This document shows, piece after piece, positions 1,434-35,959 of a stretch of 36,246 nt of DNA. The position numbers were made by a program, and so were the translations under genes. Each line of letters begins with the position of its first letter. The first letter of the stretch is position 1. The notes under the pieces are model-generated. The model had not been told where the DNA came from. It did not search any database and was given only the letters and a program-made list of their open reading frames with translations. The DNA lies in IMG/VR virus record IMGVR_UViG_2563366806_000005; one strand, given 5' to 3'. The DNA comes from a virus (Duplodnaviria; Heunggongvirae; Uroviricota; Caudoviricetes).

Positions 1434-1448
1434 AATTTCCTCCCGGTA

Positions 1449-2018: not shown

Positions 2019-2042
2019 GGTCACTCCAAGTGAACTTTTATC

Positions 2043-2071: not shown

Positions 2072-2143
2072 TATGGTGTTCACAAAATACAAACGATCCG
2101 TATTCGTCCTGATTAATCATCATTAAACGAGGAATGTTGCATC

Positions 2144-2365: not shown

Positions 2366-2397
2366 TTCGATTCTGAAATACATCAGAGGCATTGACC

Positions 2398-2907: not shown

Positions 2908-2914
2908 GGTGCTT

Positions 2915-3420: not shown

Positions 3421-3487
3421 CCAACTAATGAAATTAATGGCGTAAACCCGCCGGGCATCCCTTTATCTAAATTCAGGAGAATTGATT

Positions 3488-8916: not shown

Positions 8917-9840
8917 ATGAATAAAAAATTTACCGATGAGCAGCAACAACAGCTTATAGGACATCTCACAAAGAAAGGCTTCTATCGAGGAGCTAATATT
9001 AAAATAACCATTTTTCTATGTGGTGGTGACGTTGCTAATCATCAATCTTGGCGTCATCAATTATCACAATTTTTAGCAAAGTTCAGTGATGTTGATATAT
9101 TTTATCCAGAAGATCTATTTGATGATCTTTTGGCTGGTCAAGGGCAGCATAGCCTTTTAAGTTTAGAAAATATTCTGGCTGAAGCTGTCGATGTAATAAT
9201 TTTATTTCCTGAAAGTCCGGGGTCTTTCACAGAGCTTGGTGCGTTCTCTAATAATGAAAACTTAAGGAGAAAGTTGATTTGCATTCAAGATGCAAAATTT
9301 AAATCAAAACGTAGCTTTATTAACTATGGTCCTGTTCGCCTGTTGCGTAAGTTTAATTCAAAATCTGTTTTGCGTTGTAGTTCAAATGAACTAAAAGAAA
9401 TGTGTGATTCATCTATTGATGTTGCCAGAAAATTACGATTATATAAAAAATTAATGGCATCTATTAAGAAGGTTAGGAAAGAAAATAAAGTATCAAAAGA
9501 TATTGGAAATATATTATACGCAGAGCGGTTTCTATTGCCTTGTATCTATTTACTGGATAGTGTCAACTACCGCACACTGTGTGAACTAGCTTTTAAAGCG
9601 ATAAAGCAAGATGATGTTTTATCTAAAATTATTGTTAGATCCGTTGTTTCTCGTCTAATAAATGAACGAAAAATACTTCAAATGACTGATGGTTATCAGG
9701 TCACTGCTTTGGGGGCTAGCTATGTTAGGAGCGTCTTTGATAGAAAGACACTTGACCGATTGCGGCTTGAGATTATGAATTTTGAAAACCGTAGAAAATC
9801 AACATTTAACTATGATAAGATTCCGTATGCGCACCCTTAG
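8917..9840 (+). CDS. Retron accessory effector, 307 aa (Ec86/Eco1-type; reported as nucleoside deoxyribosyltransferase-like N-glycosidase plus DNA-binding domain)
   Basis: Immediately upstream of msr-msd and RT, same strand, stop codon inside msr repeat a1; AT-rich; function assignment is from recalled literature on Ec86, not from a motif I can verify by eye. Confidence 0.8.
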   Translation: MNKKFTDEQQQQLIGHLTKKGFYRGANIKITIFLCGGDVANHQSWRHQLSQFLAKFSDVDIFYPEDLFDDLLAGQGQHSLLSLENILAEAVDVIILFPESPGSFTELGAFSNNENLRRKLICIQDAKFKSKRSFINYGPVRLLRKFNSKSVLRCSSNELKEMCDSSIDVARKLRLYKKLMASIKKVRKENKVSKDIGNILYAERFLLPCIYLLDSVNYRTLCELAFKAIKQDDVLSKIIVRSVVSRLINERKILQMTDGYQVTALGASYVRSVFDRKTLDRLRLEIMNFENRRKSTFNYDKIPYAHP

Positions 9841-9996
9841 CGAGAGGTTTATCATTAAGGTCAACCTCTGGATGTTGTTTCGGCATCCTGCATTGAATCT
9901 GAGTTACTGTCTGTTTTCCTTGTTGGAACGGAGAGCATCGCCTGATGCTCTCCGAGCCAACCAGGAAACCCGTTTTTTCTGACGTAAGGGTGCGCA
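9828..9996 (+). ncRNA. msr-msd: Retron msr-msd non-coding RNA (template for msDNA), Ec86/Eco1-type
   Basis: Flanked by 12-nt inverted repeats a1 tgcgcaccctta (9828-9839) and a2 taagggtgcgca (9985-9996); internal stem-loops gaggtt..aacctc and ggagagcatc..gatgctctcc; sequence matches the Ec86 ncRNA as I recall it. Confidence 0.9.
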
Positions 9997-10002
9997 ACTT
10001 TC

Positions 10003-10965
10003 ATGAAATCCGCTGAATATTTGAACACTTTTAGATTGAGAAATCTCGGCCTACCTGTCATGAACAATTTGCATGACATGTCTAAGGCGACTCGCATATC
10101 TGTTGAAACACTTCGGTTGTTAATCTATACAGCTGATTTTCGCTATAGGATCTACACTGTAGAAAAGAAAGGCCCAGAGAAGAGAATGAGAACCATTTAC
10201 CAACCTTCTCGAGAACTTAAAGCCTTACAAGGATGGGTTCTACGTAACATTTTAGATAAACTGTCGTCATCTCCTTTTTCTATTGGATTTGAAAAGCACC
10301 AATCTATTTTGAATAATGCTACCCCGCATATTGGGGCAAACTTTATACTGAATATTGATTTGGAGGATTTTTTCCCAAGTTTAACTGCTAACAAAGTTTT
10401 TGGAGTGTTCCATTCTCTTGGTTATAATCGACTAATATCTTCAGTTTTGACAAAAATATGTTGTTATAAAAATCTGCTACCACAAGGTGCTCCATCATCA
10501 CCTAAATTAGCTAATCTAATATGTTCTAAACTTGATTATCGTATTCAGGGTTATGCAGGTAGTCGGGGCTTGATATATACGAGATATGCCGATGATCTCA
10601 CCTTATCTGCACAGTCTATGAAAAAGGTTGTTAAAGCACGTGATTTTTTATTTTCTATAATCCCAAGTGAAGGATTGGTTATTAACTCAAAAAAAACTTG
10701 TATTAGTGGGCCTCGTAGTCAGAGGAAAGTTACAGGTTTAGTTATTTCACAAGAGAAAGTTGGGATAGGTAGAGAAAAATATAAAGAAATTAGAGCAAAG
10801 ATACATCATATATTTTGCGGTAAGTCTTCTGAGATAGAACACGTTAGGGGATGGTTGTCATTTATTTTAAGTGTGGATTCAAAAAGCCATAGAAGATTAA
10901 TAACTTATATTAGCAAATTAGAAAAAAAATATGGAAAGAACCCTTTAAATAAAGCGAAGACCTAA
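10003..10965 (+). CDS. ret: Retron reverse transcriptase, 320 aa
   Basis: Retron-RT motifs NLLPQGAPSSPKLANL and RYADDLTLS (YADD box); starts 7 nt after repeat a2. Confidence 0.95.
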   Translation: MKSAEYLNTFRLRNLGLPVMNNLHDMSKATRISVETLRLLIYTADFRYRIYTVEKKGPEKRMRTIYQPSRELKALQGWVLRNILDKLSSSPFSIGFEKHQSILNNATPHIGANFILNIDLEDFFPSLTANKVFGVFHSLGYNRLISSVLTKICCYKNLLPQGAPSSPKLANLICSKLDYRIQGYAGSRGLIYTRYADDLTLSAQSMKKVVKARDFLFSIIPSEGLVINSKKTCISGPRSQRKVTGLVISQEKVGIGREKYKEIRAKIHHIFCGKSSEIEHVRGWLSFILSVDSKSHRRLITYISKLEKKYGKNPLNKAKT

Positions 10966-18515: not shown

Positions 18516-18909
18516 AGCGGTGCCTTATGTCCGCAATAACCCGGACAAACTGCATCTGTTTGTGGATAACGGTTCGCTGGTTGCCACGGGGGCCAGCTCC
18601 ATGTCGTGGGAGTACCGTTACACCCTGAACGCGGTGATTGAGGATTTCAGCGGCGACCAAAATCTGCTGATGGCCCCGGTTTTGCTGTGGCTGCGGGATA
18701 ACCAGCCCGATGCCATCAATAACCCGGCGTTACGGGAAAAACTATTTACCTTTGAGGTGGATATTCTGCGCAACGATGTCTGTGATATCAGCCTTAACCT
18801 GCATCTGACGGAACGTGTGCTGGTCAGCACTGACGGCAGTGTGTCGAGCGTTGAAGCTGTAGCAGAACCCGATGAACCTGAAGAAATGTGGACGGTGAAA
18901 CGTGGCTGA
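18478..18909 (+). CDS. R: Tail completion protein R
   Basis: Position; GTG 18478 with RBS aggag preferred over TTG 18457. Confidence 0.75.
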   Translation: MNKPQSLRHALNKAVPYVRNNPDKLHLFVDNGSLVATGASSMSWEYRYTLNAVIEDFSGDQNLLMAPVLLWLRDNQPDAINNPALREKLFTFEVDILRNDVCDISLNLHLTERVLVSTDGSVSSVEAVAEPDEPEEMWTVKRG

Positions 18910-19348
18910 ACTGCAGAAGGTGGACGACTGGCTTAGTGCCTTACTGGCGAATCTGGAACCAGTCGCAAGAAGCCGCATGATGCGCCAGCTGGCGCAGGAA
19001 CTGCGCCGGACACAGCAGCAGAATATCAGGATGCAGCGCAATCCAGATGGCAGCAGTTATGAACCGCGCAAGGTCACGGCGCGCAGTAAAAAAGGCCGCA
19101 TCAAACGTCAGATGTTTGCAAAGCTGCGCACCACCAAATACCTGAAAACCGCCGCCAGCGCCGACTCTGCCAGCGTACAGTTTGAAAGTAAGGTGCAGCG
19201 CATTGCTCGCGTTCACCATTATGGCCTGCGCGATCGCGTCAGCCGCAAAGGACCGGAAGTGCGTTACGCAGAGCGTCGTTTGTTGGGTCTTAATGGTGAG
19301 TCTTACGTTCTAACTCGTGATATATTGAATAGATTCCTTCTGTCTTGA
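18902..19348 (+). CDS. S: Tail completion protein S; final ~19 codons encoded by the AT-rich insert
   Basis: Position after R; 3' end overlaps the convergent cargo gene by 59 nt. Confidence 0.75.
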   Translation: MAELQKVDDWLSALLANLEPVARSRMMRQLAQELRRTQQQNIRMQRNPDGSSYEPRKVTARSKKGRIKRQMFAKLRTTKYLKTAASADSASVQFESKVQRIARVHHYGLRDRVSRKGPEVRYAERRLLGLNGESYVLTRDILNRFLLS

Positions 19349-20096
19349 ATTCACCATATGCCCAATGAATTGCATTTTTTTGTTCAGTCAGAATATATTT
19401 CCTAACTTTTTTAGAATAGTGAATGGTCAGTATAAAACCCAAAGAAATCCATAATAGAATAAATATGGTTGTTGGGGCAAAGGAATAGATAAAGAATTTG
19501 TCTTTAACGAAATTCTTGACTTCTTCATCAATGTAAGTATTCCCTTCATCAGTGGTTAGTAGTTTACAAAGAATTTCTTTATGTTCGATAGTTAATGATT
19601 TGTACTTCTCTGTACTGGCAGAGGATGACTCTTCGCAATCATCTTTTGATATTTCCCAATCAGGAGTGGTTAATATTGTAGCTGCAGTCGCCAGTTTTTT
19701 TGACATATAAAATGATTCACCGGACTTTATCCAATAAAGCAATGTGCTATTTGGTGGGGTTCTAATGGCTTGGATGAAAACTGGACCAAAAATATAAATT
19801 GCACACAAAAAAAGAAGTGAAAAGAGAACCGTGATTGATTTTTCAGCCCATGTGATAGTAGGCAGCCTTTTTAATGATATTCGTATAAGAAAAAAATTTA
19901 ATATAAACGCAGGTATTCCTGATTTTTTCAAAATTACATCATGAGATTTTCTATATTTGAATAGTGCTCTTATAACTATCGTCACCAAAGTTATAACAGC
20001 TCCAATAATGGAAATCCATGCGGCAAGTGCCGCTGCCGGGGTGTTTAAAAATTCAGCATTAAATATATTAGAACTTATTGGATTCATAACACTCAT
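19290..20096 (-). CDS. Uncharacterised multi-pass membrane protein, 268 aa; AT-rich cargo gene antisense between S and V
   Basis: Hydrophobic helices (AAALAAWISIIGAVITLVTIVI; ITVLFSLLFLCAIYIFGPVFI; FAPTTIFILLWISLGFILTI); strongly AT-rich versus flanks; no recognisable enzymatic motif. Confidence 0.6.
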   Translation of the reverse strand: MSVMNPISSNIFNAEFLNTPAAALAAWISIIGAVITLVTIVIRALFKYRKSHDVILKKSGIPAFILNFFLIRISLKRLPTITWAEKSITVLFSLLFLCAIYIFGPVFIQAIRTPPNSTLLYWIKSGESFYMSKKLATAATILTTPDWEISKDDCEESSSASTEKYKSLTIEHKEILCKLLTTDEGNTYIDEEVKNFVKDKFFIYSFAPTTIFILLWISLGFILTIHYSKKVRKYILTEQKNAIHWAYGEFKTEGIYSIYHELERKTHH

Positions 20097-20135
20097 TTAT
20101 CCACCTATTGGTTGTTTTTTATCCTTTTATCAATT

Positions 20136-20153
20136 TGTACCATCGATACCACA
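20136..20153 (+). promoter_or_regulatory. Ogr-type late activator site TGT-N12-ACA upstream of V
   Basis: tgtaccatcgataccaca, 47 nt upstream of the V start. Confidence 0.5.
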
Positions 20154-20199
20154 ATTTGCAAGAAGTTATAAACAAGTTTTCAGCTGTCATCATATATCT

Positions 20200-20778
20200 A
20201 TGAACGCACAACTAACCGAAATCATGCGCCTTATCACCAATCTGATCCGCATAGGTGTAGTCACCGAAGTGGACCGGGAAAACTGGCTTTGTCGGGTGAA
20301 AACGGGCGACCTTGAAACCAACTGGATCAGCTGGCTGACGCTGCGCGCGGGTAATGCCCGCACATGGTGGCGACCATCGGAAGGTGAGCAGGTGGTGCTG
20401 CTGAGTCTGGGCGGCAATCTGGAGACTGCCTTTGCGCTGCCCGCTGTCTATTCGAATCAGTTCGCACCACCGTCGACGTCGGCGGACGCCTGCGTGACAG
20501 AACATCCTGACGGTGGCTGGTTTGAATACGAACCCGCCACCGGGCGCTGGTATGTCAGGGGCATCAAATCAATGGTCATTGAGGCCGCTGATAACATCAC
20601 CATGAAAACCAGTGAGTTTGTACTGGAGGCTGACCGCACGCGCATTAACAGCGAAGTGGTGATCAATGGTGGCGTTACCCAGGGCGGCGGAGCGATGAGT
20701 TCTAACGGGATCGTGGTTGATGCGCATCAGCATACTGGCGTCCTGAAAGGCGGCGATACAACCGGAGGCCCGGTATGA
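20200..20778 (+). CDS. V: Baseplate spike protein (P2 gpV)
   Basis: ATG 20200 (track start 19957 runs through the promoter region); position before W-J-I. Confidence 0.85.
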   Translation: MNAQLTEIMRLITNLIRIGVVTEVDRENWLCRVKTGDLETNWISWLTLRAGNARTWWRPSEGEQVVLLSLGGNLETAFALPAVYSNQFAPPSTSADACVTEHPDGGWFEYEPATGRWYVRGIKSMVIEAADNITMKTSEFVLEADRTRINSEVVINGGVTQGGGAMSSNGIVVDAHQHTGVLKGGDTTGGPV

Positions 20779-21134
20779 CGCTTTATAGCGGGATGAACAA
20801 TACCAGCGGCAAAGTCATTACTGATATTGACCATCTGCGCCAGTCGGTGCGGGACATTCTGCTGACGCCGCAGGGTAGCCGCATTGCTCGCCGTGAATAT
20901 GGTTCCCTGCTGTCGGCACTGATAGACCAGCCACAAAATCCGGCGTTACGCCTGCAGGTCATGTCGGCAGTGTATGTGGCGCTGAGTCGCTGGGAGCCAC
21001 GGCTGACGCTGGATTCCATCACCATTAACAGCAATTTTGACGGTTCAATGGTGGTGGGACTGACCGGGCGGCGTAATAACGGTGTGCCTGTTTCCCTTTC
21101 CGTATCAACAGGAGCAGAGAATGGCAGTGATTGA
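20775..21134 (+). CDS. W: Baseplate protein W (gp25-like)
   Basis: 119 aa, RBS ggagg, overlaps V stop. Confidence 0.85.
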   Translation: MTLYSGMNNTSGKVITDIDHLRQSVRDILLTPQGSRIARREYGSLLSALIDQPQNPALRLQVMSAVYVALSRWEPRLTLDSITINSNFDGSMVVGLTGRRNNGVPVSLSVSTGAENGSD

Positions 21135-22029
21135 CCTTTCGCAGTTGCCTGCGCCGCAGATTGTCGATGTGCCGGACTTTGAGACGTTGCTTGCCGAACG
21201 CAAGGCCGAATTTGTTGCGCTTCATCCGAAAGATGAGCAGGAAGCCGTGATCCGCACGCTGGAACTGGAATCTGAACCCGTCACCAAATTGCTGCAGGAG
21301 AATGCTTACCGTGAGTTGCTTCTGCGCCAGCGCATTAACGAAGCCGCGCAGGCGGTGATGGTGGCTTACGCGATGGGCGGCGATCTTGACCAGCTCGCTG
21401 CCAACTACAACGTGAAACGCCTGACGGTGACGCCTGCTGATAATGACGCTGTGCCGCCCGTTGCGGCTGTGATGGAAAGCGATGAAGCGTTACGCCTGCG
21501 TGTGCCTGCAGCCTTTGAAGGGCTTTCAGTTGCGGGGCCAACTGCAGCCTATGAATTTCATGCCCGAAGCGCCGACGGTCGGGTGGCGGATGCCAGTGCA
21601 ACCAGTCCGGCACCTGCAGAGGTGGTACTGACTGTCCTTAGCCGTGAAGGCGACGGAACAGCAGAAAAAGACCTGCTGGATGTGGTGGAAAAAGCCCTGA
21701 ACAGTGAGAACGTCCGCCCGGTGGCTGACCGTCTGACGGTTCGCAGCGCAGAAATCATCCCGTATCGCGTGGAAGCCACCATTTTTCTCTATCCGGGACC
21801 GGAAGCAGAGCCGGTAATGGCAGCGGCAAAAGCCAGCCTGCAGAAGTACATCGCCAGTCAGACGCGTCTTGGTCGGGATATTCGCCGTAGCGCCATCTTT
21901 GCCGCCTTGCATGTTGAGGGTGTGCAGCGTGTGGAGCTGGCTTCTCCTCTGGCGGATGTGGTCCTGAACAAAACACAGGCGGCATCATGTACGCAGTGGA
22001 GCGTAACCAACGGAGGAACGGATGAATAG
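21121..22029 (+). CDS. J: Baseplate protein J
   Basis: ATG 21121 with RBS aggagcag; position. Confidence 0.85.
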   Translation: MAVIDLSQLPAPQIVDVPDFETLLAERKAEFVALHPKDEQEAVIRTLELESEPVTKLLQENAYRELLLRQRINEAAQAVMVAYAMGGDLDQLAANYNVKRLTVTPADNDAVPPVAAVMESDEALRLRVPAAFEGLSVAGPTAAYEFHARSADGRVADASATSPAPAEVVLTVLSREGDGTAEKDLLDVVEKALNSENVRPVADRLTVRSAEIIPYRVEATIFLYPGPEAEPVMAAAKASLQKYIASQTRLGRDIRRSAIFAALHVEGVQRVELASPLADVVLNKTQAASCTQWSVTNGGTDE

Positions 22030-22627
22030 TCTGCTGCCACCGGGTTCAACACCACTGGAGCGCCGACTGGCGCAAACCTGCAGCGGGATTTCTGATCTGC
22101 AGGTGCCGCTTCGTGACTTGTGGAATCCGGCAACCTGTCCGGTCAGTTTCCTGCCTTATCTCGCCTGGGCGTTCTCTGTGGATCGCTGGGACGAGGACTG
22201 GACAGAAAGTGTCAAGCGCCAGGTGGTGAAGGATGCTTTTTATATTCATCAGCATAAAGGGACCACCAGTGCCGTGCGGCGGGTGGTGGAGCCGTTCGGC
22301 TTTCTGATCCGCATTATTGAGTGGTGGCAGACCGGAGAGACACCGGGCACGTTTCGTCTGGATATCGGCGTGCAGGACCAGGGCATCACTGAAGATACCT
22401 ATCTGGAACTTGAGCGACTGATAAGCGATGCCAAACCATGCAGCCGTCACATGATCGGCATGTCCATCAACCTGCAGACCAGCGGCCCGCATTGGGTGGG
22501 AGCCGCCAGCTATCTTGGCGAAGAAATCACGATCTATCCGTATATCAACGAAACAATTATTTCCGGTGGCACCGCGCATGAAGGCGGGGCGGTCCATGTT
22601 ATTGACACAATGAGAGTGAATCCATGA
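22022..22627 (+). CDS. I: Baseplate / tail fibre attachment protein I
   Basis: Position between J and H. Confidence 0.8.
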   Translation: MNSLLPPGSTPLERRLAQTCSGISDLQVPLRDLWNPATCPVSFLPYLAWAFSVDRWDEDWTESVKRQVVKDAFYIHQHKGTTSAVRRVVEPFGFLIRIIEWWQTGETPGTFRLDIGVQDQGITEDTYLELERLISDAKPCSRHMIGMSINLQTSGPHWVGAASYLGEEITIYPYINETIISGGTAHEGGAVHVIDTMRVNP

Positions 22628-24309
22628 GCACAAAATTTTATACCCTGCTGACGGATATTGGCGCGGCGAAACTTGCCAGCGCCGCCGCGCTCGGTGTGCC
22701 TTTAAAAATTACCCATATGGCGGTCGGCGATGGCGGCGGAGTATTGCCAACGCCGGATGCAAAGCAGACTGCACTGGTGAATGAGAAACGCCGGGCTGCG
22801 CTGAATATGCTCTATATCGACCCGCAGAACAGTAGCCAGATTATTGCTGAACAGGTAATCCCTGAAAATGAGGGCGGTTGGTGGATACGTGAAGTGGGCC
22901 TGTTTGATGAGTCCGGGGCATTGATTGCCGTGGGAAACTGCCCGGAAAGCTATAAGCCGCAACTGGCTGAAGGCAGTGGGCGTACCCAGACCGTGCGCAT
23001 GGTGCTGATTACCAGCAGCACGGACAATATCACCCTGAAAATCGACCCTGCCGTCGTGCTGGCAACCCGCAAGTATGTGGATGACAAGGTACTGGAGCTG
23101 AAGGTGTTCGTGGATGATAAGATGGCAAAACATCTTGCCGCACCGGACCCGCATTCACAGTATGCACCCAAAGAAAGCCCGACATTGACCGGAACACCCA
23201 AAGCGCCAACGCCAGCGGAGGGGAATAACACCACGCAGATTGCGACCACCGCGTTTGTTCAGGCGGCACTGATGGCCCTTATTAATGGTGCGCCAGCCAC
23301 ACTGGATACGATGAAAGAAATTGCCGCTGCCATTAATAATGACCCGAAATTCAGTACCACCATTAACAATGCGCTGGCACTGAAAGCGCCGCTGTTAAGT
23401 CCGGCATTCACCGGAACGCCAACAGCCCCCACTGCCGCACAGTCGGTTAACAATACACAGATTGCCACCACGGCTTTTGTGAAATCGGCAATTGCGGCAA
23501 TGGTGGGGTCTGCACCTGCTGCACTGGATACACTGAACGAACTGGCTGCGGCGCTGGGGAATGACCCGAACTTTGCCACGACAATGCTTAATGCGCTGGC
23601 AGGTAAACAACCGTTGGACAATACGCTGACTAATTTGAGTGGAAAGGATGTAGCTGGTCTTCTCGCATACCTTGGTTTGGGAGATACAAGCGGATACGTG
23701 GGACGCCGGCTGAGTACCCGGGCTTTCGCGTCATCAGGTACGTATACCCCATCACCAGAAACAAAACGGATCAGGGTCACAATAACGGGCGGCGGTGGCG
23801 GAGGGGGTGGCTGCCAGGCTATATCCAGTAACGAAACGTTTTTCGGTGCTGGCGGTGGGGCCGGAGGGACAGTAATCACCATACTGACCCCGACACAGAA
23901 TAGTTATCCTGTCACTATCGGCGCAGGTGGGGCCGGCGGCGTTGGTGCGACGAACGGCCTCAAGGGCGGTGATAGCTCGTTCGGATCGGTAATAGCCCCT
24001 GGTGGTGAAGGCGGCGGAAAAGTAGGAGTCACAAACACAAACGGCGGTAACGGAGGCGTACCGAATATTGGCGATATCCGCATCACTGGTGGAGATGGAG
24101 GCGACGGTCAGTCCGGGAATATCAGCGTCAGCGGTGAAGGCGGTGCATCGTACTGGGGAGGCGGTGGACGTGCAGGCGCTGGCGGTGGCGTTAGAGGCAG
24201 GGCATTTGGTTCAGGCGGAGGTGGTGCATACGATGCAGGTTATAGCGGAACCAGTATGACGGGCGGGAAAGGTGCTGATGGGGTTTGTATTATCGAGGAG
24301 TTTGCATAA
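22624..24309 (+). CDS. H: Tail fibre protein H (constant N-terminal part plus current variable glycine-rich tip)
   Basis: N-terminus MSTKFYTLLTDIGAAKLA typical of P2-like H; three internal tandem repeats; Gly-rich C-terminus; invertase crossover site inside the gene. Confidence 0.85.
   Translation: MSTKFYTLLTDIGAAKLASAAALGVPLKITHMAVGDGGGVLPTPDAKQTALVNEKRRAALNMLYIDPQNSSQIIAEQVIPENEGGWWIREVGLFDESGALIAVGNCPESYKPQLAEGSGRTQTVRMVLITSSTDNITLKIDPAVVLATRKYVDDKVLELKVFVDDKMAKHLAAPDPHSQYAPKESPTLTGTPKAPTPAEGNNTTQIATTAFVQAALMALINGAPATLDTMKEIAAAINNDPKFSTTINNALALKAPLLSPAFTGTPTAPTAAQSVNNTQIATTAFVKSAIAAMVGSAPAALDTLNELAAALGNDPNFATTMLNALAGKQPLDNTLTNLSGKDVAGLLAYLGLGDTSGYVGRRLSTRAFASSGTYTPSPETKRIRVTITGGGGGGGGCQAISSNETFFGAGGGAGGTVITILTPTQNSYPVTIGAGGAGGVGATNGLKGGDSSFGSVIAPGGEGGGKVGVTNTNGGNGGVPNIGDIRITGGDGGDGQSGNISVSGEGGASYWGGGGRAGAGGGVRGRAFGSGGGGAYDAGYSGTSMTGGKGADGVCIIEEFA
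23661..23686. repeat. Invertase crossover site (left), inside H
   Basis: ttggtttgggaga (23672-23684) is the exact reverse complement of 25456-25468; half-sites resemble Gin/Hin/Cin/Pin recombination sites. Confidence 0.65.
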
Positions 24310-24719
24310 TGAATGCGTCATATGCAGTTATTGAAAATGGGATGGTTGTGAATGTCATTGTCTGGGATGGCGAGGATGAATTCACTGTGCCGGATAATCT
24401 GCAGCTCATTAATATTTCTGATATCAGTGAGCAGCCCGGAATCGGCTGGGCGTATTCAGACGGGGTATTTACTGCGCCGCTCCCTCCGGAACGTTCTCAT
24501 GATGAACTGGTAGCTGACGCTGAACAGAAAAAACAGTCGTTGATAGACGCAGCAATGGTCAATATCAGCGTGATTCAGTTAAAGCTGCAGGCCGGGCGGA
24601 AGCTGACGCAGGCAGAAACCACCCGACTTAACGCCGTGCTGGATTACATTGACGCGGTGACGGCAACAGATACCAGCACTGCGCCGGATGTCATCTGGCC
24701 TGAACTGCCGGAGGCGTAG
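24309..24719 (+). CDS. G: Tail fibre assembly chaperone (Tfa / gpG-like), active orientation
   Basis: RBS gagga; overlaps H stop; C-terminal ...LDYIDAVTATDTSTAPDVIWPELP shared with the inverted copy. Confidence 0.75.
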   Translation: MNASYAVIENGMVVNVIVWDGEDEFTVPDNLQLINISDISEQPGIGWAYSDGVFTAPLPPERSHDELVADAEQKKQSLIDAAMVNISVIQLKLQAGRKLTQAETTRLNAVLDYIDAVTATDTSTAPDVIWPELPEA

Positions 24720-25134
24720 GCCATTCAATATCTGGAGCACTGGAGGTATCAACCAGTTCCAGTGCGTCCAGATAATCCAGCCACAAATTATATTGCACCA
24801 GTTCCTCACCTTTCAGACGACCAATTGATGCTTTACCTGGCCATTGTTTACTGTTGATGTATTCGTTGGCCTGATTAATCAATTGCTGCTTTTTAGTTTC
24901 GGCTGATGCAATTTGTTCTTCACGTGTTGGTGGAGGAATATCTACCCATGCAGGCAGTCCATCTTCTCCGACACATCTGTATTTTCCTTCTGGTGGTGTA
25001 TCATAGAAATATTCCCTGAAAATTACTTCGTCTATATCAACACCTTTTTCTTCAGGCCACTCACCTTTTTCAACATAAAGAGACTTAAGTTCGTAAGGAT
25101 ATGCCAGGTTGTTTACGTACAGATATTTCATCAT
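24691..25134 (-). CDS. Alternative tail fibre assembly chaperone (Tfa'), inverted cassette
   Basis: Convergent with tfa; C-terminus ...LDYLDALELVDTSSAPDIEWPTPP paralogous to Tfa. Confidence 0.7.
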   Translation of the reverse strand: MMKYLYVNNLAYPYELKSLYVEKGEWPEEKGVDIDEVIFREYFYDTPPEGKYRCVGEDGLPAWVDIPPPTREEQIASAETKKQQLINQANEYINSKQWPGKASIGRLKGEELVQYNLWLDYLDALELVDTSSAPDIEWPTPPAVQAR

Positions 25135-25508
25135 TACCAGCCCTTAGCGAAAAACGCACCACCTTCAAGACCATAATTGCAGTGAGCTATGAAGCCGGTA
25201 GTGCTCCAGTTGGTCGCCCCCCACATATTCCCACCCCCGAAACCACCATCGCACACAATTACAATGCCCGGTGTCTGTGTAAATGGAATCGGGAATGAAA
25301 CATTGGCGGATACAGGCCCGTGTTCACTAGGAAAACTAATTCGTCCCCACTGTTCAATTGAACCATCTGGCATTTTTCGCCAGCCTGAACCTGATGCATA
25401 TGATGACATATCAGGTATCTGATTTTCCCCAGTTCCCACATTCCGTTTTGCCGCTTCTCCCAAACCAACGTTTAAGAAAATGCAGCGATTACGACTAACT
25501 GGCATCAT
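25134..25508 (-). CDS. Alternative tail fibre C-terminal (variable) segment Sv', would fuse to H after inversion
   Basis: Contains the right crossover site near its 5' end; shares the GLG codons (ggtttggga) in frame with H at the left site. Confidence 0.6.
25455..25480. repeat. Invertase crossover site (right)
   Basis: ttctcccaaaccaacgtttaagaaaa; inverted repeat partner of 23661-23686. Confidence 0.65.
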
Positions 25509-25535
25509 CCCCGATTTTTATTCAAGGAGATGATC

Positions 25536-26102
25536 ATGCTTATTGGCTATGTACGCGTGTCAACAAATGACCAGAACACCGATTTGCAACGTAGTGCGCT
25601 GAACTGCGCGGGATGTGAGCGGATTTTTGAGGATAAAATCAGCGGCACTAAGTCCGACAGACCGGGGCTGAAAAAACTGCTCAGGACACTATCGGCAGGA
25701 GACACGCTGGTTGTCTGGAAGCTGGACAGGTTGGGGCGCAGTATGCGGCATCTTGTTACGCTGATAGAAGAGTTACGCCAGCGTGGTGTGAATTTCAGAA
25801 GCCTGACTGACAGTATTGATACCAGTACCCCAATGGGCCGTTTCTTTTTTCATGTCATGGGTGCCCTGGCTGAAATGGAACGCGAACTGATAGTTGAACG
25901 TACCAGGGCAGGGCTGGCTGCAGCTCGTGCCAAAGGCAGAGTAGGTGGACGCCGTCCTAAGTTGACCACCGAACAGTGGGCACAGATTGGGCGTTTACTC
26001 GAGGCCGGAGAATCAAGACAGCGTATTGCACTGATTTTTGATGTAGGCGTTTCTACCATTTATAGAAAATTTCCGGCAAATAAGAGCAATGAATCCCCCT
26101 GA
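25536..26102 (+). CDS. Serine recombinase, DNA invertase (Gin/Hin/Cin/Pin family)
   Basis: MLIGYVRVSTNDQNTDLQ N-terminus with catalytic Ser, C-terminal HTH; directly adjacent to the invertible segment. Confidence 0.9.
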   Translation: MLIGYVRVSTNDQNTDLQRSALNCAGCERIFEDKISGTKSDRPGLKKLLRTLSAGDTLVVWKLDRLGRSMRHLVTLIEELRQRGVNFRSLTDSIDTSTPMGRFFFHVMGALAEMERELIVERTRAGLAAARAKGRVGGRRPKLTTEQWAQIGRLLEAGESRQRIALIFDVGVSTIYRKFPANKSNESP

Positions 26103-26150
26103 ATCAGCATTATTTTGATTATCCCTGCAAGTAGACAAATACCGTCATTT

Positions 26151-26168
26151 TGTGTGAATAACGACACA
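26151..26168 (+). promoter_or_regulatory. Ogr-type late activator site TGT-N12-ACA upstream of FI
   Basis: tgtgtgaataacgacaca, about 77 nt upstream of the FI start. Confidence 0.5.
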
Positions 26169-26244
26169 ACTGCGCTTAGCTGTTTGTCAGGCACAATCAC
26201 TTCAACATAGGGCGAAGCCTAATCCAATCAGGAGGTTCGCCACT

Positions 26245-27417
26245 ATGGCTCAGGATTACCACCACGGGGTGCGCGTTGTTGAAGTCAACGAAGGCACCCG
26301 ATCTATTACCACGGTGAGCACCGCCATCGTGGGTATGGTCTGCACGGGCGATGATGCCGATGCAAAAATGTTTCCTCTTAATAAACCCGTGCTGATCACT
26401 GATGTTCTGACTGCCAGCGGTAAAGCGGGTGAGTCAGGTACTCTGGCCCGTTCGCTGGATGCCATCGCTGACCAGGCAAAACCCGTGACCATTGTTGTGC
26501 GTGTGCCGCAGGGTGAAACGGAAGACGAAACCACGACCAATATCATCGGCGCAGTGACTGCTGAAGGTAAAAAAACAGGTATGAAAGCCCTGTTATCTGC
26601 CCAGTCACAGCTCGGCGTTAAACCGCGCATTCTCGGCGTGCCAGGCCACGACACCAAGGCGGTAGCTACTGAGTTGCTAAGCGTGGCGCAAAGCCTGCGT
26701 GGATTTGCTTACCTGTCAGCGTATGGCTGCAAGACAGTGCAGGAGGCGATCACTTACCGCGAAAACTTCAGCCAGCGTGAAGGGATGCTGATCTGGCCTG
26801 ACTTTACTGGCTGGGACACGGTGCTGAATGCCGAAGCAACGGCATATGCCACCGCCCGTGCGCTTGGTCTGCGCGCCAAAATTGACGAGCAGACCGGATG
26901 GCACAAAAGCCTGTCCAACGTGGGCGTGAACGGTGTCACCGGAATTTCTGCAGATGTGTTCTGGGATCTGCAGGACCCGGCAACCGATGCAGGTCTGCTG
27001 AACCAGAACGACGTCACCACGCTTGTGCGTAAAGACGGTTTCCGCTTCTGGGGTTCCCGCTGCCTGAGTGATGACCCGCTCTTTGCCTTCGAAAACTACA
27101 CCCGCACGGCGCAGGTGCTGATGGACACGATTGCAGAAGCACACATGTGGGCGGTGGATAAACCTCTTAACCCGTCGCTGGCCCGCGACATTATCGAAGG
27201 TATCCGCGCCAAAATGCGCAGCCTGGTCAGTCAGGGCTATCTCATTGGTGGTGATTGCTGGCTGGATGAGTCGGTGAACGACAAAGACACGCTGAAAGCC
27301 GGAAAACTCACCATCGACTATGACTACACGCCAGTGCCGCCACTTGAAAATCTGATGCTGCGCCAGCGCATCACCGATCAGTACCTGGTGAATTTTGCCA
27401 GCCAGGTCAGCGCGTAA
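26245..27417 (+). CDS. FI: Tail sheath protein (P2 gpFI)
   Basis: 390 aa, position and size as P2 FI. Confidence 0.9.
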
Positions 27418-27426
27418 GGGGACAAC

Positions 27427-27942
27427 ATGGCTTTACCACGCAAATTAAAACATCTGAACCTGTTTAACGACGGGAACAACTGGCAGGGGATCGTAGAGTC
27501 GCTGACGCTGCCGAAATTCACCCGCAAATATGAGAAGTATCGCGGCGGCGGAATGCCGGGTGCAGTAGATGTGGATCTGGGGCTTGATGACAGTGCGCTG
27601 GACACAGAATTTTCCATTGGTGGTACTGAACTGCTGCTGTTTAAGCAGATGGGCAAAGCCACTGTGGATGGCATCCAGCTGCGCTTTACCGGCTCTATCC
27701 AGCGTGACGATACCGGGGAAGTGCAGGCTGTGGAGCTTGTGGTGCGTGGACGTCACAAAGAAGTGGATTCCGGCGAGTGGAAGACGGGCGAAAGCAACAC
27801 CACCAAAGTGACCAGTACCAACAGCTACGCGAAGCTGACCATCAATGGTGAGGTGCTCTATGAAGTGGACCTTATCAACATGGTGGAAATTGTGGATGGT
27901 GTGGACCTGATGGAAGCACACCGCAACGCACTCGGCCTCTGA
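27427..27942 (+). CDS. FII: Tail tube protein (P2 gpFII)
   Basis: 171 aa, directly after the sheath gene. Confidence 0.9.
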   Translation: MALPRKLKHLNLFNDGNNWQGIVESLTLPKFTRKYEKYRGGGMPGAVDVDLGLDDSALDTEFSIGGTELLLFKQMGKATVDGIQLRFTGSIQRDDTGEVQAVELVVRGRHKEVDSGEWKTGESNTTKVTSTNSYAKLTINGEVLYEVDLINMVEIVDGVDLMEAHRNALGL

Positions 27943-27996
27943 TCTATCTGAACGGCGCGGGATACCGCGCCAGAACCCAATTTAAAGGACAGCAAA

Positions 27997-28299
27997 ATGA
28001 GCGATAAGCAGACTGAAAAGACCATTCAACTGGATACCCCCATCAAGCGCGGTAAAACGGAAATCACCGAAATTGTGCTGCGTAAACCGCAGTCCGGTGC
28101 GCTGCGCGGTACACGCCTGCAGGCCATTATGGATATGGATGTAAACGCGATGATGACCGTGATCCCCCGCATCTCCAGTCCGGCACTGACTGCACAGGAA
28201 ATTGCAGAGATGGACCCGGCAGATCTCACTGCCATGTCGGTTGAGGTTGTCACTTTTTTGTTGAAGAAGTCGGTGCTTGCCGGTTTACCGACAGCCTGA
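27997..28299 (+). CDS. E: Tail assembly chaperone E (zero-frame product)
   Basis: Position between FII and T; contains slippery TTTTTTG at 28254-28260. Confidence 0.75.
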   Translation: MSDKQTEKTIQLDTPIKRGKTEITEIVLRKPQSGALRGTRLQAIMDMDVNAMMTVIPRISSPALTAQEIAEMDPADLTAMSVEVVTFLLKKSVLAGLPTA

Positions 28300-28433
28300 C
28301 GGTTGACGATCTGGTGGCAGATATCGCCACCATTTTTCACTGGCCGCCATCCGTTACTGACGTTATGCCGCTGACCGAAGTGCTGGAATGGCGGTATAAA
28401 GCGATTCAGAGAAGCGGGGCCAACGATGAGTGA
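27997..28433 (+). CDS. E': Tail assembly chaperone E+E' (-1 programmed frameshift product)
   Basis: After a -1 shift at TTTTTTG the frame stays open to TGA at 28431-28433, overlapping the T start; same arrangement as P2 E/E'. Confidence 0.55.
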
Positions 28434-31400
28434 TAACAACCTGCGTCTGCAGGTCATTCTTAATGCGGTTGACAAGCTCACCCGCCCATTTCGATCTGCG
28501 CAGGCCAGTTCAAGAGAACTGGCTGCTGCTGTCAAAAAATCCCGCGATGCAATAAAGCAGCTTGATCAGGCCGGGAGCAGTCTGGACAGCTTCCGAAAGC
28601 TGCAGGCAGAAAATCAGAAATTAGGCGACAGGCTGAACTATGCCCGCCAGCGTGCAAATTTGCTCAGTCAGGAACTGGGAGCGATGGGGCCGCCTTCGCA
28701 ACGTCAGGTTGTTGCTCTGGGCCGTCAACGGCTGGCTGTTCAGCGCCTGGAAGAACGCCAGAAAAAGCTGCAGCAGCAGACGGCGCTTGTGCGTGCTGAA
28801 CTGTACCGGGCGGGAATTTCTGCGAAAGACGATGCGGGAGCAACTGCCCGTTTAGCCCGTGAAACATCACGTTATAACCAGGAACTTTCGAAACAGGAGG
28901 CGCGGCTGAAGCGACTGGGGGAAGCTCAGCGCAGGATGAATGCAGCGCGTGTCAGTTATGCCCGTTCGCTGGAGGTGCGTGATCGTATTGCAGGTGCCGG
29001 AGCCACCACCACGGCTGCAGGGCTGGCAATGGGCGCACCAGTGATGGCGGCAGTAAAAAGCTATACCAGCATGGAAGATGCCATGAAAGGTGTGGCAAAG
29101 CAGGTCAATGGTCTGCGTGACGATAATGGCAACCGCACTGCACGTTTTTATGAAATGCAGGATGCCATCAAGGCTGCCAGCGAACAGTTGCCGATGGAAA
29201 ACGGTGCGGTGGATTTCGCTGCACTGGTTGAAGGTGGTGCGCGCATGAACGTCGCAAACCCTGACGACAGTTGGGAAGATCAGAAACGTGACCTGCTGGC
29301 CTTCGCCAGTACGGCAGCAAAGGCGGCAACAGCCTTTGAGCTGCCAGCGGATGAACTGTCAGAAAGTCTGGGGAAAATCGCCCAGCTCTACAAAATCCCC
29401 ACCCGCAATATTGAACAGCTCGGTGATGCGCTGAACTATCTGGATGATAACGCCATGTCGAAAGGGGCAGACATCATTGATGTGATGCAACGTCTGGGCG
29501 GTGTGGCTGACCGTCTGGATTATCGTAAAGCGGCGGCGCTGGGTTCCACCTTCCTGACACTGGGCGCTGCGTCAGAGGTTGCAGCCAGTGCAGCAAACGC
29601 GATGGTGCGTGAATTGTCCATTGCCACCATGCAAAGCAAGAGTTTCTTTGAAGGGATGAATCTGCTGAAACTCAATCCTGAAGTGATTGAAAAGCAGATG
29701 ACGAAGGATGCGATGGGAACTATCCAGCGTGTGCTGGAGAAGGTGAACGCACTGCCGCAGGACAAGCGTCTGTCTGCCATGACCATGTTGTTTGGTAAAG
29801 AGTTTGGCGATGACGCGGCGAAACTGGCAAACAACCTGCCGGAACTACAGCGCCAGCTAAAACTGACAGCGGGCAATGATGCGCTCGGTTCCATGCAGAA
29901 AGAATCCGATATCAACAAGGACTCACTTTCTGCTCAGTGGTTGCTGGTTAAAACCGGAGCGCAGAATACCTTCAGCAGCCTGGGCGAAACGCTGCGCCAG
30001 CCGCTGATGGATATTCTGTACACGGTGAAAAGCGTTACGGGAGCGTTGCGTCGCTGGGTGGAAGCTAACCCGGAACTGACGGGCACACTGATGAAAGTAG
30101 CCGCTATTGTGGCTGCGGTTACCGTAGGCCTCGGCACCTTGGCTGTGGCGCTGGCTGCAGTGCTGGGGCCGCTGGCAGTCATCCGTCTGGGATTCTCTGT
30201 GCTGGGCATCAGAACGTTACCTTCCGTTACGGCAGCAGTAACACGAACCAGCAGCGCGTTGTCCTGGCTGGCTGGCGCACCACTGGCACTGCTGCGACAC
30301 GGGCTTGCTTCATCGGGTAACGCAGCGGGTTTACTTACTGCGCCGTTGTCGTCTTTGCGCCGTACGGCATCACTGACGGGAAATGTCCTGAAAACTGTTG
30401 CAGGTGCGCCGGTTGCACTTTTGCGGTCTGGATTATCCGGTTTACGTGCGGTTGCTGTGATGTTTATGAATCCTCTGGCGGTACTGCGCGGTGGACTGAC
30501 CGCTGCAGGTACGGTGCTGCGAGTACTGGCATCTGGTCCACTGGCGATGCTGCGCGTTGCCCTGTATGCCATATCTGGTCTGTTAGGTGCTCTGCTCAGT
30601 CCGATAGGTCTAGTGGTTACTGCACTGGCAGGCGTGGCGCTGGTTGTCTGGAAATACTGGCAACCCATCACCGCATTTCTCGGTGGCGTGGTGGAGGGAT
30701 TCAAAGCGGCGGCAGGTCCCGTCAGTGCCGCATTCGAACCACTTAAGCCTGTGTTCCAGTGGATTGGCGACAAAGTGCAGGCGCTGTGGGGCTGGTTTAC
30801 TGACCTGCTGACGCCCGTTAAGTCGACCTCTGCCGAACTGCAGAGTGCAGCGGCAATGGGGCGACGATTCGGGGAGGCCCTGGCGGAAGGGCTGAATATG
30901 GTCATGCATCCGCTGGACTCCCTGAAATCCGGCGTTTCCTGGTTGCTGGAGAAACTCGGCATTGTCAGTAAAGAGGCCGCAAAGGCAAAACTACCGGAAA
31001 GCGTGACGCGTCAGCAACCTGCGACGGTGAATGCAGACGGCAAAGTGATGATGCCATCGGGTGGTTTTCCATCATGGGGATATGGCTTTGCGGGGATGTA
31101 TGACAGCGGCGGGTATATCCCGCGCGGGCAGTTTGGCATCGTCGGTGAAAACGGGCCGGAAATTGTTAACGGCCCGGCAAATGTGACCAGCCGGAGAAAT
31201 ACAGCTGCACTGGCTGCCGTTGTTGCCGGAATGATGGGCGTTGCTGCCGCGCCAGCAGAGCTTCCACCGTTGCACCCTTTGGCACTTCCCGCGAAAGGTG
31301 GAGAAGCAATTGTGAGTCGCGCAGCCACTGTGCCGCTCGTTCAACGGATTGAGGCACCGACGCAGATCATCATTCAGACGCAGCCAGGACAAAGTGCGCA

Positions 31401-33413: not shown

Positions 33414-33471
33414 TCGTTAAAAAACAGTGCTTCTAACATCATGATTTTAAAGAGCATAAATTTCAGGCAAC

Positions 33472-33514
33472 AAAAAACCCATCAACCTTGAACCGAAATG
33501 GCGGGGTTGATGGG
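33472..33514 (-). terminator. Rho-independent terminator of ybjL (minus strand)
   Basis: cccatcaacc / ggttgatggg 10-bp stem followed on the minus strand by a T6 run. Confidence 0.6.
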
Positions 33515-33626
33515 CTCCACAAAATGGGGACATCAAAGAAAAGCAGTGGCACTAATTAAGACTGATGCCCTGCGGAAAAGTTCTGCGGTTGTGCAAAAAA
33601 ATTTCATTTTCAGGGCAACTTCAGTT

Positions 33627-35312
33627 TTATCCTAATCCTGGCCATACCATGACGATGATTGTCCCTGCCAGCGTCAGCAGGACGTTGGCGATTGCATAGG
33701 TGCCCGCATAGCCCAGCGCCGGGATGTTACTGCGAGCTGTATCACTGATGATCTCCATTGCCGGCGCGCAGGTACGTGCGCCCATCATTGCGCCGAACAA
33801 CAGCGCGCGGTTCATTCGCAATACATAAGCACCGAACAAGAAACAGATAACCACGGGCACCAGACTGACAATCAATCCGGCAATCAACATCTGACCGCCA
33901 ATCGCGCCCAGGCCGTTATTAATACCGCTACCGGCGCTCAGACCAACGCCTGCCATAAACACCATCAAGCCGAACTCTTTCACCATGCTTAATGCACCCT
34001 GCGGAATGTAACCGAAGGTCGGGTGGTTAGCACGCATAAAGCCCAGCATAATTCCGGCGAATAACAACCCGGCAGCGTTCCCCATGCCGAAACTGAATGT
34101 GCTGAACTGGAAGGTGATCATCCCGATCATCAGCCCAATAACAAAGAAGGCGCAAAATGCCAGCAGGTCAGTGACCTGGCTGTGAATCGAGATAAAGCCG
34201 ATGCGATCGGCGATGGTTTTTACGCGACGGGCATCACCGCTGACTTGTAAAACGTCACCTTTGTTAAGCACGACGTTGTCATCTATCGGCATCTCAATCT
34301 GGCTACGAATGACGCGGTTAAGGAAGCAACCGTGATCGGTCAACTTCAGTTGTGCGAGACGTTTACCTACAGCGTTATGGTTTTTAACGACCACTTCTTC
34401 AGTGACGATACGCATGTCGAGAAGGTCACGATCGAAAACTTCTTTACCGTTACGGAAGCTGGGATCGAGTCGGGCATGGGCGTCGGGATAGCCTACCAAC
34501 GCTATTTCATCGCCCATTTGTAGCACGGCATCACCGTCTGGATTTGCCAGAATCCCGTTACGTCGAATACGTTCAATGTAGCAGCCGGTTTGTCGATAAA
34601 TACCCAGTTCACGCAGATTTTTGCCGTCGGTCCAGGCCACCAGCTCCGGGCCGACGCGATAGGCGCGGATCACCGGTAAATAAACCTTACGGTTGGCATC
34701 AGTGTCCAGGCCACGTTCGCGGGCGATTTGCTGGGCGCTGGTCTGTAAGTCCTGATGCTGCAATTTCGGCAAGTAACGCGCACCAACAATCAAACTCACC
34801 AGACCGATTAAATAGGTTAAGGCATACCCGAGGCTCAGATTATCCAGTGCCAGTGAGAGCTGCCTGCTTTCCATGCCGGAATGACGCAGTGTATCGCCAG
34901 CACCGACCAGAACCGGTGTCGACGTCATAGAGCCTGCTAACATACCGGCCGTCAGGCCAATATCCCAGCCAAACAGCTTACCTAACCCTAAGGCGATCAC
35001 CAGCGCACTGCCAACCATCACCAGTGCTAACATTAGGTAATTTTTCCCATCGCGAAAAAAAATGGAAAAAAAGTTCGGTCCGGCTTCAACCCCAACACAG
35101 AAAATAAACAGCATAAAGCCAAGATTAAGCGCATCGGTGTTAATGCTGAAATGTTGTTGGCCTAATAACAGCGATACGACTAAAACGCCAATGGAATTAC
35201 CCAGTTGGATCGAACCAAGTCGTAACTTTCCGAGACATAGCCCAAGCGCGAGGACCACAAATAATAACAGAATGTAATTCCCATTTAACAATTCGGCGAC
35301 GTTTATATTCAC
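33627..35312 (-). CDS. ybjL: Putative transport protein YbjL (AAE-family transporter)
   Basis: 561-aa polytopic membrane protein; N-terminus [33 protein letters not shown] matches E. coli YbjL as I recall it. Confidence 0.85.
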
Positions 35313-35581
35313 GGAGGCTAACTTCTTGTTTACTAGTAAGCTGTTGAAAGAAATGGTAATTTACGATAATGTTTTTTACCAGAATTCAGGGCGCAGATTC
35401 ATTCAGCGCACCTAAACGATAGTAAAGTAACAATATATTTTACTAGTGTAATCACATTAGGTATCAACGGCTATATGAATTGCGTTGGCCTATATTAGCA
35501 TGGAATGCGAAGCGGCTTTATCTTACTGAACGCCACACTGGCGAAAAATGTGTTCGATAGACGCAGTGTCAGGAGGAACGA

Positions 35582-35959
35582 GTGAAACATAAACAACGTT
35601 GGGCGGGGGCAATCTGCTGTTTTGTCCTCTTCATTGTGATGTGCCTTTTTCTGGCGACGCACATGAAAGGCGCTTTTCGGGCTGCCGGGCATCCTGAAAT
35701 CGGCTTGCTATTTTTCATTCTTCCTGGAGCAGTCGCCAGCTTCTTTTCACAGCGTAGAGAAGTCCTGAAACCTCTGTTTGGCGCAATGCTGGCGGCACCC
35801 TGTTCGATGCTCATTATGCGGCTGTTTTTTTCACCGACGCGCTCATTCTGGCAAGAGCTGGCATGGTTATTAAGTGCGGTGTTCTGGTGTGCGCTGGGGG
35901 CACTGTGTTTCTTATTTATCAGTAGTTTGTTTAAACCACAGCACAGAAAAAATCAGTAA
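35582..35959 (+). CDS. ybjM: Inner membrane protein YbjM
   Basis: 125-aa membrane protein, GTG start with RBS aggagg; between ybjL and grxA as in E. coli K-12. Confidence 0.8.
   Translation: MKHKQRWAGAICCFVLFIVMCLFLATHMKGAFRAAGHPEIGLLFFILPGAVASFFSQRREVLKPLFGAMLAAPCSMLIMRLFFSPTRSFWQELAWLLSAVFWCALGALCFLFISSLFKPQHRKNQ

Follow-up and report, generated by a model that had tools for sequence, protein, structure and literature searches.

The DNA that we analyzed (hereafter the window, 36,246 nucleotides in full) is a complete-looking P2-like prophage of E. coli in which the P2 gene order is kept from int to the tail genes. Membership among the P2-like phages (Peduovirinae) is evident from the order V-W-J-I-H-tfa ... 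FI-FII-E-T, a GPA replication protein, and an integrase; family matches in the window include Baseplate_J, Tail_P2_I, Phage_tail_fib, sheath, Phage_GPA, and integrase. E. coli prophages carrying the same P2-type annotation are 99.9% identical to the window, and assembly GCA_000350685.1 matches positions 18692-31000 at 100%. Retron genes were also noticed in passing, and an Rfam search for a retron noncoding RNA returned nothing credible near them.

The tail-fiber gene H and the region downstream of it are summarized in Table 1. The constant part of H is collinear with sibling P2-like prophages at 95 to 96% identity, up to position 23684. Beyond this part, H currently ends in a glycine-rich tip with 779 homologues, which are for the most part E. 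coli prophage tail proteins. Many records name this tip "carbohydrate kinase." A sequence search of the tip against the PDB gave no match, and an AlphaFold2 model built from a 21-sequence alignment was discarded as unusable (mean pLDDT, 38). On the opposite strand, Tfa' converges on tfa with a 29-bp overlap, and the open reading frame (ORF) of the silent tip Sv', as listed, begins at position 25508 with an ATG that lies beyond the invertible segment. Sv' weakly matches the C terminus of the R2-pyocin tail fiber (PDB code 6ct8; E = 4.5e-4). Each tip has a Caudo_TAP chaperone gene downstream in its own orientation. The first-pass annotation had described this content, namely, a glycine-rich tip with Tfa and an inverted Sv' with Tfa' beside an adjacent serine invertase, and Pfam matches to every one of these products bear it out.

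Table 1. Coordinates of the features at the H locus in the window
Feature	Position	Strand	Details
H, tail-fiber gene	22624-24309	+	561 aa in present state
H constant part, aa 1-350, to center of left site	22624-23673	+	PF12571 Phage_tail_fib, aa 1-150, E 1.7e-64
Left crossover site (26 bp), within H	23660-23685	+	central TT at 23672-23673; 0 mismatches to pattern
Invertible segment, 1795 bp between central dinucleotides	23673-25467	.	in silico flip keeps H in frame
Glycine-rich variable tip now carried by H (aa 351-561)	23674-24309	+	PF21722 Gly_rich_2, aa 372-558, E 1.5e-13
Tfa, chaperone for glycine-rich tip, 136 aa	24309-24719	+	PF02413 Caudo_TAP, E 2.3e-21; phrog_188
Tfa', alternative chaperone, 147 aa	24691-25134	-	PF02413, E 2.1e-33
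Sv', silent alternative tip, 110 aa past crossover	25134-25466	-	PF21882 Gp53-like_C, E 9.4e-8
Right 26-bp crossover site	25455-25480	-	central AA at 25467-25468; 0 mismatches to pattern; 25/26 match to the site next to pinE in e14
Serine DNA invertase, Pin/Cin/Gin family, 188 aa	25536-26102	+	PF00239, E 2.6e-53; PF02796, E 1.4e-15
Putative recombinational (Fis) enhancer, 5' end of invertase gene	25554-25625	+	positional homologue of P1 cin nt 19-90

The 13 bp TTGGTTTGGGAGA at 23672-23684 are the exact reverse complement of 25456-25468, and the repeat extends to 25 nt at 80% identity. The first-pass annotation had rightly reported this repeat, which is not significant by itself. Indeed, we rejected it as statistical evidence, since repeats of this kind abound in the window: searching within 5 kb for exact inverted repeats of at least 13 bp gave 17, compared with a mean of 4.8 in random Markov sequences, and an unrelated perfect 15-mer inverted pair is also present. 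The significance of the sites thus comes from their match to a reference-derived site pattern rather than from the 13-bp repeat alone. This degenerate 22-nt pattern was compiled from the Mu gix, P1 cix, and e14 sites only. When the 36 kb were searched with it, both sites matched without a mismatch (0.00 expected), in keeping with their proposed resemblance to Gin/Hin/Cin/Pin crossover sites, and no further crossover site was found in the window even with 2 mismatches allowed.

The left site reads TTCTCGCATACC TT GGTTTGGGAGAT and the right site TTCTCCCAAACC AA CGTTTAAGAAAA. The two are inverted relative to each other, as in Din-family systems, and their central dinucleotides are identical when read in inverted orientation. 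The left site coincides with H codons 346 to 354 (LLAYLGLGD), the right site lies within the minus-strand ORF at 25134-25508 (..NVGLGEAAK..), and GGTTTGGGA, which encodes Gly-Leu-Gly, is in frame at both; the placement of one site in H and the other in an opposite ORF, and the shared reading frame, are therefore as first proposed. Breakpoints of homology with relatives all fall at the left site. A multi-inversion system such as Min of p15B and an Rci shufflon were considered and set aside, since there are only two sites and the recombinase is of the serine rather than the tyrosine type.

Flipping 23673-25467 in silico produced an uninterrupted, in-frame 460-aa H that ends in the gp53-like tip and is followed directly by Tfa'. 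Inversion of the segment thus swaps in-frame fiber C termini, each with its cognate chaperone, which is the arrangement characteristic of the Din family. The same fusion of the gp53-like tip to H, again with Tfa' directly downstream, is found in two relatives (L006 and L015).

The invertase gene is intact and is preceded by an AAGGAG ribosome-binding site 7 nt upstream. Its product, which is 85% identical to PinE, 77% to Cin, and 73% to Gin, has the architecture of a Din-family recombinase, with an N-terminal resolvase domain and a C-terminal helix-turn-helix (HTH) within the usual length of about 185 to 195 aa. Ser9, Arg7, Asp64, Arg65, and Arg68 lie in columns invariant among this protein, PinE, Cin, and Gin, so the catalytic residues are in place. 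Over its full length the protein can be aligned to the structure of Gin (PDB code 3uj3; E = 4e-92), and its HTH matches that of Hin (PDB code 1hcr). The putative enhancer is 76% identical in nucleotides to the annotated cin enhancer over a stretch that is itself coding sequence, and its synonymous sites show a small excess of conservation that is not clearly above the rest of the invertase gene. If Gin, Hin, and Cin are a guide, Fis bound to this stretch probably assists inversion.

A gene and sites that look intact could still be relics. The segment may no longer invert, whether through the Ser found at invertase position 20, an enhancer defect, or lack of expression, and the states seen in databases would then be old fixed variants. 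Position 20 is Asn in PinE, Cin, Gin, and five siblings, and the substitution (N20S) thus falls at an otherwise invariant position; the Ser variant is, however, common. A promoter/terminator scan of 22300-26400, which returned no more sites than shuffled sequence, picked up no sigma-70-like promoter for the invertase and none for the silent tip, which the first-pass annotation had called promoterless. Relatives with dead invertases also exist (an internal stop in EC102 and a truncation in e14-like loci); therefore, single copies can be locked, or flipped only in trans. Against this stands the invertase sequence itself, whose exact recurrence on 664 contigs speaks for purifying maintenance. Given this and the natural inversions described below, we regard loss of inversion as improbable.

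Both orientations are observed in natural sequences. We looked up the exact protein sequences in public contigs and examined the neighbors of Tfa'. The present 561-aa glycine-rich H occurs as an exact protein on 90 contigs and the flipped 460-aa H on 39, and the two share the same 350-aa constant part. According to the first-pass annotation, a single orientation throughout, together with an inactive invertase (for example, one with a mutated catalytic Ser), would have spoken against a switch; what we found is two orientations and an intact gene with Ser9. Two sister assemblies (L013 and L015; GCA_052935415.1 and GCA_052935455.1), whose prophage is 98% related to the one studied here, are 100.000% identical over 12.4 kb save for an inverted 1.85-kb segment, and its joints are at the central dinucleotide, within a 15-bp overlap centered on the 2-bp core. 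In strain 95-3322 the gp53-like tip is in the ON state, and in EC102 a glycine-rich tip is in the OFF state; the breakpoints lie at 23684 and 25452-25471. At one e14-like locus, strains 127 and T2 (L005 and L008) carry the same segment, 99.9% identical, in opposite orientations. That both exact fiber proteins exist on one constant part, and that sister assemblies differ by inversion only, is difficult to reconcile with a segment that has ceased to invert. These orientations come from public genomes rather than from the clone under study, and switching in this clone would not be visible in one assembled sequence, which alone does not reveal orientation changes. Cultures polymorphic for such inversions have been documented, both for e14 and for EPEC prophages of the P2-like type (PMC4272514).

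Orientation differences could in principle also arise by homologous recombination or cassette replacement between prophages instead of by the invertase. Elsewhere, homologous exchange has clearly replaced cassette halves: similarity to two siblings (L001 and L003) ends at 23684 and restarts at 24534, in the conserved C-terminal half of tfa. Temperate phages are also known to acquire DNA from defective prophages via relaxed homologous recombination (PMC3945230). In L013 and L015, however, flanks and segment are 100% identical and the joints fall in the 15-bp overlap around the core, and for general recombination to invert a segment through 13 to 15 bp of homology is far less likely than catalysis by an adjacent dedicated enzyme. 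Moreover, experiments have shown inversion at this site sequence by both PinE and PinQ (PMC12529663). Homologous exchange as the source of the two orientations is thus very improbable.

Recombination may have played a different part in the history of the cassette. Positions 23669-25473 are 99.9% identical to the cassette of non-K-12 e14-like elements (2 mismatches in 1805 bp), and this identity stops precisely at the 26-bp sites: the sequence to the left of the cassette is unrelated, and that to its right is 82% identical. A tract of this kind that ends at the sites is consistent with cassette exchange at crossover sites, a long-standing proposal (Sandmeier 1994, as cited in PMC3945230). We tentatively suggest a recent transfer of the whole cassette between this P2-like prophage and an e14-like cryptic one, through recombination at the two crossover sites; either the invertase or short-homology recombination could have made the joints. 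If so, Pin sites would be both a flip switch and docking points where receptor-binding modules pass between unrelated prophages of the same cell. The sharp 99.9% tract would then offer a clean natural example of cassette exchange between unrelated prophages that could be used to test invertase-catalyzed swaps.

Collectively, these data make us highly confident that the tail-fiber operon of this P2-like prophage contains a two-state, Pin/Gin-type site-specific inversion switch. Mechanistically, the invertase would bind both inverted 26-bp sites, probably assisted, as its relatives Gin, Hin, and Cin are, by Fis on the putative enhancer near the start of the invertase gene, and strand exchange at the central TT/AA dinucleotide would flip the 1,795-bp segment. 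The segment appears to lack a promoter of its own, so whichever half faces the H constant part would be read through from the late operon. The present orientation would yield the 561-aa fiber with the glycine-rich tip and its Tfa, and the other the 460-aa fiber with the gp53-like tip and Tfa'; a lysogen population would thereby release two kinds of virion with different receptor-binding tips. From the examples of Mu, P1, and carotovoricin, we infer that the tip swap would change host range, and the switching rate likewise belongs to the inferred part of this reading.

The module might instead, or in addition, serve the host. Inversion of the e14 P segment, driven by PinQ or PinE, makes the chimera StfE2, which blocks T2 adsorption (PMC12529663), and one orientation here could similarly give a fiber fragment that blocks a surface receptor and excludes other phages. 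Both the sites and the invertase belong to the e14 type, and the silent-tip ORF has its own ATG at 25508 and appears as a gene in the RefSeq annotation of relatives. Weighing against such a role, the prophage looks complete, with P2 order from int to the tail genes; H lies in the late operon, which is silent in lysogens; no promoter-like site was found for the silent ORF; and the tips are unlike those of K-12 e14. We therefore consider host service unlikely, and the two-state fiber switch remains our preferred reading.

As a discovery the switch carries little weight, being real but textbook, a classical phage switch recognizable from sequence alone. In practice, invertible segments lead to assembly breaks and to tail proteins misannotated as "partial" or "pseudogene," and any prediction of host range from a prophage sequence first requires that the orientation be known.

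The switch is the known Din (Gin/Cin/Pin/Hin) tail-fiber inversion system, already demonstrated experimentally in e14 and in P2-like prophages. The e14 P segment with PinE has the same layout, running from the constant part of stf through a tip and tfa to the inverted tfa and tip and then the invertase. The right site of the window matches the one beside pinE at 25 of 26 positions, the inner half-sites (GGTTTGGGAGA) are identical, and the 13-bp core is shared with the e14 inverted repeats, whose recombination has been demonstrated experimentally; the e14 P segment measures 1,797 bp, versus 1,795 bp here (PMC12529663). Unlike the complete-looking P2-like myovirus backbone in the window, e14 is a remnant, its StfP is unrelated to the P2 H constant part, and the tips of K-12 e14 differ, with alignment at the DNA level only in the C-terminal half of tfa (about 85%) and the invertase (80%). 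The Mu G segment with Gin shares the Sc-Sv-U/U'-Sv' layout, an invertase just outside the segment, and alternating tips and chaperones that change host range, but it is about 3 kb long, its gix sites have a TC core and other outer halves, and its tips are unrelated. The P1 C segment with Cin has cix sites with a TT core and an annotated enhancer in the 5' end of cin, to which a homologous stretch corresponds here; cin, however, lies on the other side, where the silent end is, and at 4.2 kb the segment differs in size. The Min system of p15B has six sites and many permutations, in contrast to the two sites found here. In Salmonella, Hin and the H segment share the recombinase family and the logic of the 26-bp site, but Hin flips a promoter that controls flagellin genes, whereas coding C termini are swapped here. 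Likened by description, the P2-like prophages of EPEC E2348/69 combine an invertase with inverted repeats that give alternative fiber C termini (Goldberg et al. 2014, PMC4272514), and sequencing showed that both states coexist in cultures (PMC4272514); one of those loci has three repeats and four variants, whereas the window holds the simple two-state form.

The first-pass annotation had reported a 13-bp exact inverted repeat in the tail fiber region, and this repeat is present at 23672-23684 (TTGGTTTGGGAGA) and 25456-25468. By itself, the repeat is unremarkable, because the window has 17 exact inverted repeats of at least 13 bp within 5 kb, versus a mean of 4.8 in random sequences; the remarkable part is its match to known crossover sites. 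Reference sites were taken from annotated records (the Mu G-segment boundaries, P1 cixL and cixR with the cin enhancer, and K-12 e14), and a 22-nt degenerate pattern fitting 6/6 reference sites was used for the search. The pattern matched the window twice with 0 mismatches, at 23663-23684 (+) and 25456-25477 (-) (expected by chance, 0.00), in line with the earlier suggestion that 26-bp sites here resemble Gin/Hin/Cin/Pin crossover sites; no further site was found in the window at up to 2 mismatches. Of the 26 positions of the right site (TTCTCCCAAACCAACGTTTAAGAAAA), 25 are shared with the e14 site that adjoins pinE. The central dinucleotides (TT at 23672-23673 and AA at 25467-25468) are inversion compatible.

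The two Din-type sites stand in inverted orientation and lie in a fiber module that offers two alternative C-termini, both in frame and both paired with a cognate chaperone; an intact Pin-type invertase adjoins them. When 23673-25467 (1,795 bp) was reverse complemented in silico, H codon 350 was joined in frame to the gp53-like tip, yielding the alternative fiber that had been predicted: a 460-aa protein ending in FAKGW, with the start of Tfa' overlapping the stop of its ORF. The Gly-Leu-Gly codons previously noticed at both sites are shared because the inner half-sites are identical. R2-pyocin fiber C-termini match the gp53-like tip weakly, and a PDB sequence search recovered no relative with a solved structure for the glycine-rich tip, whose homologues include many 308-aa proteins misannotated as "carbohydrate kinase." Separately, the constant shaft of H contains a 94-nt direct repeat (23175-23268 and 23397-23490; 71% identity, 222-bp spacing), which reflects a duplicated module of ~74 aa (..TGTP.AP....NNTQIATTAFV..).

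Coordinates of annotated features in the window
Feature	Position	Strand	Description
Integrase	1-1131	-	
HNH-domain protein	7922-8641		directly upstream of the retron pair
Type II-A retron pair	8917-10965	+	NDT-like effector (PADLOC NDT_II-A, E 2.7e-94) and reverse transcriptase (RT_II-A, E 7e-128; Pfam RVT_1)
DUF6216 protein	19290-20096	-	268 aa
H	22624-24309		561 aa; P2-type N-terminal fiber domain; C-terminal glycine-rich domain PF21722 (aa 372-558)
Tfa chaperone	24309-24719	+	Caudo_TAP, 136 aa
Tfa' chaperone	24691-25134	-	Caudo_TAP, 147 aa; convergent with Tfa
ORF with gp53-like C-terminal domain	25134-25508	-	
Serine recombinase	25536-26102	+	188 aa; last gene of the module
RybB sRNA	33469-33547	-	Rfam, 105 bits
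ybjL-like permease and YbjM	33627-35959		host chromosome right of the prophage

The serine invertase said to adjoin the cassette is an intact PinE/Cin/Gin-like recombinase (85% identity to PinE, 77% to Cin, and 73% to Gin). The protein can be aligned with the Gin crystal structure along its entire length and keeps Ser9 and the conserved Arg/Asp residues, and its exact sequence was found on 664 public contigs. Codon 20 (25593-25595) encodes Ser, versus Asn in PinE, Cin, Gin, and five sibling prophage invertases (N20S). This codon also falls inside 25554-25625, which shares 76% identity with its homologue in P1 cin (nt 19-90), an annotated enhancer, and which we infer to be a recombinational enhancer.

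Inversion occurs in nature, as supported at four levels. Rather than a single orientation beside an inactive invertase, public genomes hold both states, with joints at the core: the 561-aa H was found by exact-protein look-up on 90 contigs and the 460-aa in-silico product on 39. A closely related P2-like prophage (94.6 to 98.1% identity to the window over aligned regions) is carried by assemblies GCA_052935415.1 and GCA_052935455.1, between which the flanks (2 × 4,945 bp) and segment (1,848 bp) are 100.000% identical, the segment is inverted, and the joints fall within a 15-bp overlap around the core dinucleotide. The two form a clean natural before-and-after pair, with 100% identity over 12.4 kb bar the inverted 1.85-kb segment. 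Among sibling P2-like prophages, whose breakpoints in similarity to the window are 23684 and 25452-25471, that of strain 95-3322 has the gp53-like tip ON, and its flipped junction is covered to at least 80% in one place by ten more genomes; in EC102, a glycine-rich tip is OFF and the adjoining invertase has an internal stop. Likewise, an e14-like locus with a Mu-type baseplate has collinear flanks (99.3 to 99.9% identity) and an inverted cassette in strain 127 versus T2. Inversion within cultures has been published both for P2-like prophages of EPEC and for e14 (PMC4272514), and the e14 segment is inverted by PinE and PinQ at the same repeat sequence as in the window (PMC12529663). Many database entries for the H fiber are "partial" proteins of 341 to 349 aa ending at the crossover-site position (aa 346 to 354), which would fit assemblies breaking where the segment exists in both orientations.

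The 36-kb window comprises an E. coli P2-like prophage and some flanking chromosome. The prophage encodes an integrase, GPA replication protein, portal, terminase, and tail genes V-W-J-I-H, then sheath, tube, E, and tape-measure. RybB, the ybjL-like permease, and YbjM at the right end are host genes and therefore place the prophage end at ~33.1 to 33.45 kb. Prophages in many E. coli genomes match 1-6000 at 99.9% identity, and assembly GCA_000350685.1 is 100% identical to 18692-31000. The retron defense pair lies between replication gene A and portal gene Q, a moron hotspot of P2; an Rfam search found no credible msr/msd RNA near its genes. The DUF6216 moron, inserted on the opposite strand between tail genes S and V, has no PADLOC match.

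The cassette in the window (23669-25473) is 99.9% identical (2 mismatches in 1,805 bp) to the one in e14-like elements from several strains of E. coli. On the left side of 23669, P2 H in the window faces unrelated StfP sequence, and past 25473 on the right, identity drops to 82%; therefore, this comparison provides evidence for a recent exchange of the whole cassette in which the two joints lie within the crossover sites, although short-homology recombination could also have made these joints. Outside the cassette, the same region is only 95 to 98% identical to the nearest P2-like siblings, and the window's backbone-cassette combination was found in one piece in no complete E. coli genome of the collection searched. 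Cassette identity to three loci in e14-like or other defective prophages, including those of strains 127 and T2, is 99.6 to 99.9%, and this high identity ends exactly at both crossover sites. A second type of mosaic joint is seen at 24534, where the C-terminal half of tfa is conserved; this joint resembles ordinary homologous exchange. Recent cassette exchange agrees with a long-standing proposal in which invertases are the drivers of horizontal fiber-module exchange (Sandmeier 1994, as cited in PMC3945230).

Collectively, these data confirm the first-pass observation and support its interpretation as an inversion switch; the cassette-exchange detail goes beyond that interpretation. By analogy with the Gin/Hin/Cin paradigm, a Fis-enhancer invertasome would assemble, the segment would switch at low frequency in lysogens, and induced populations would release two virion types differing in receptor specificity. 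The system belongs to the classical Din inversion family; the combination of such a system with a P2-like prophage has already been demonstrated experimentally.
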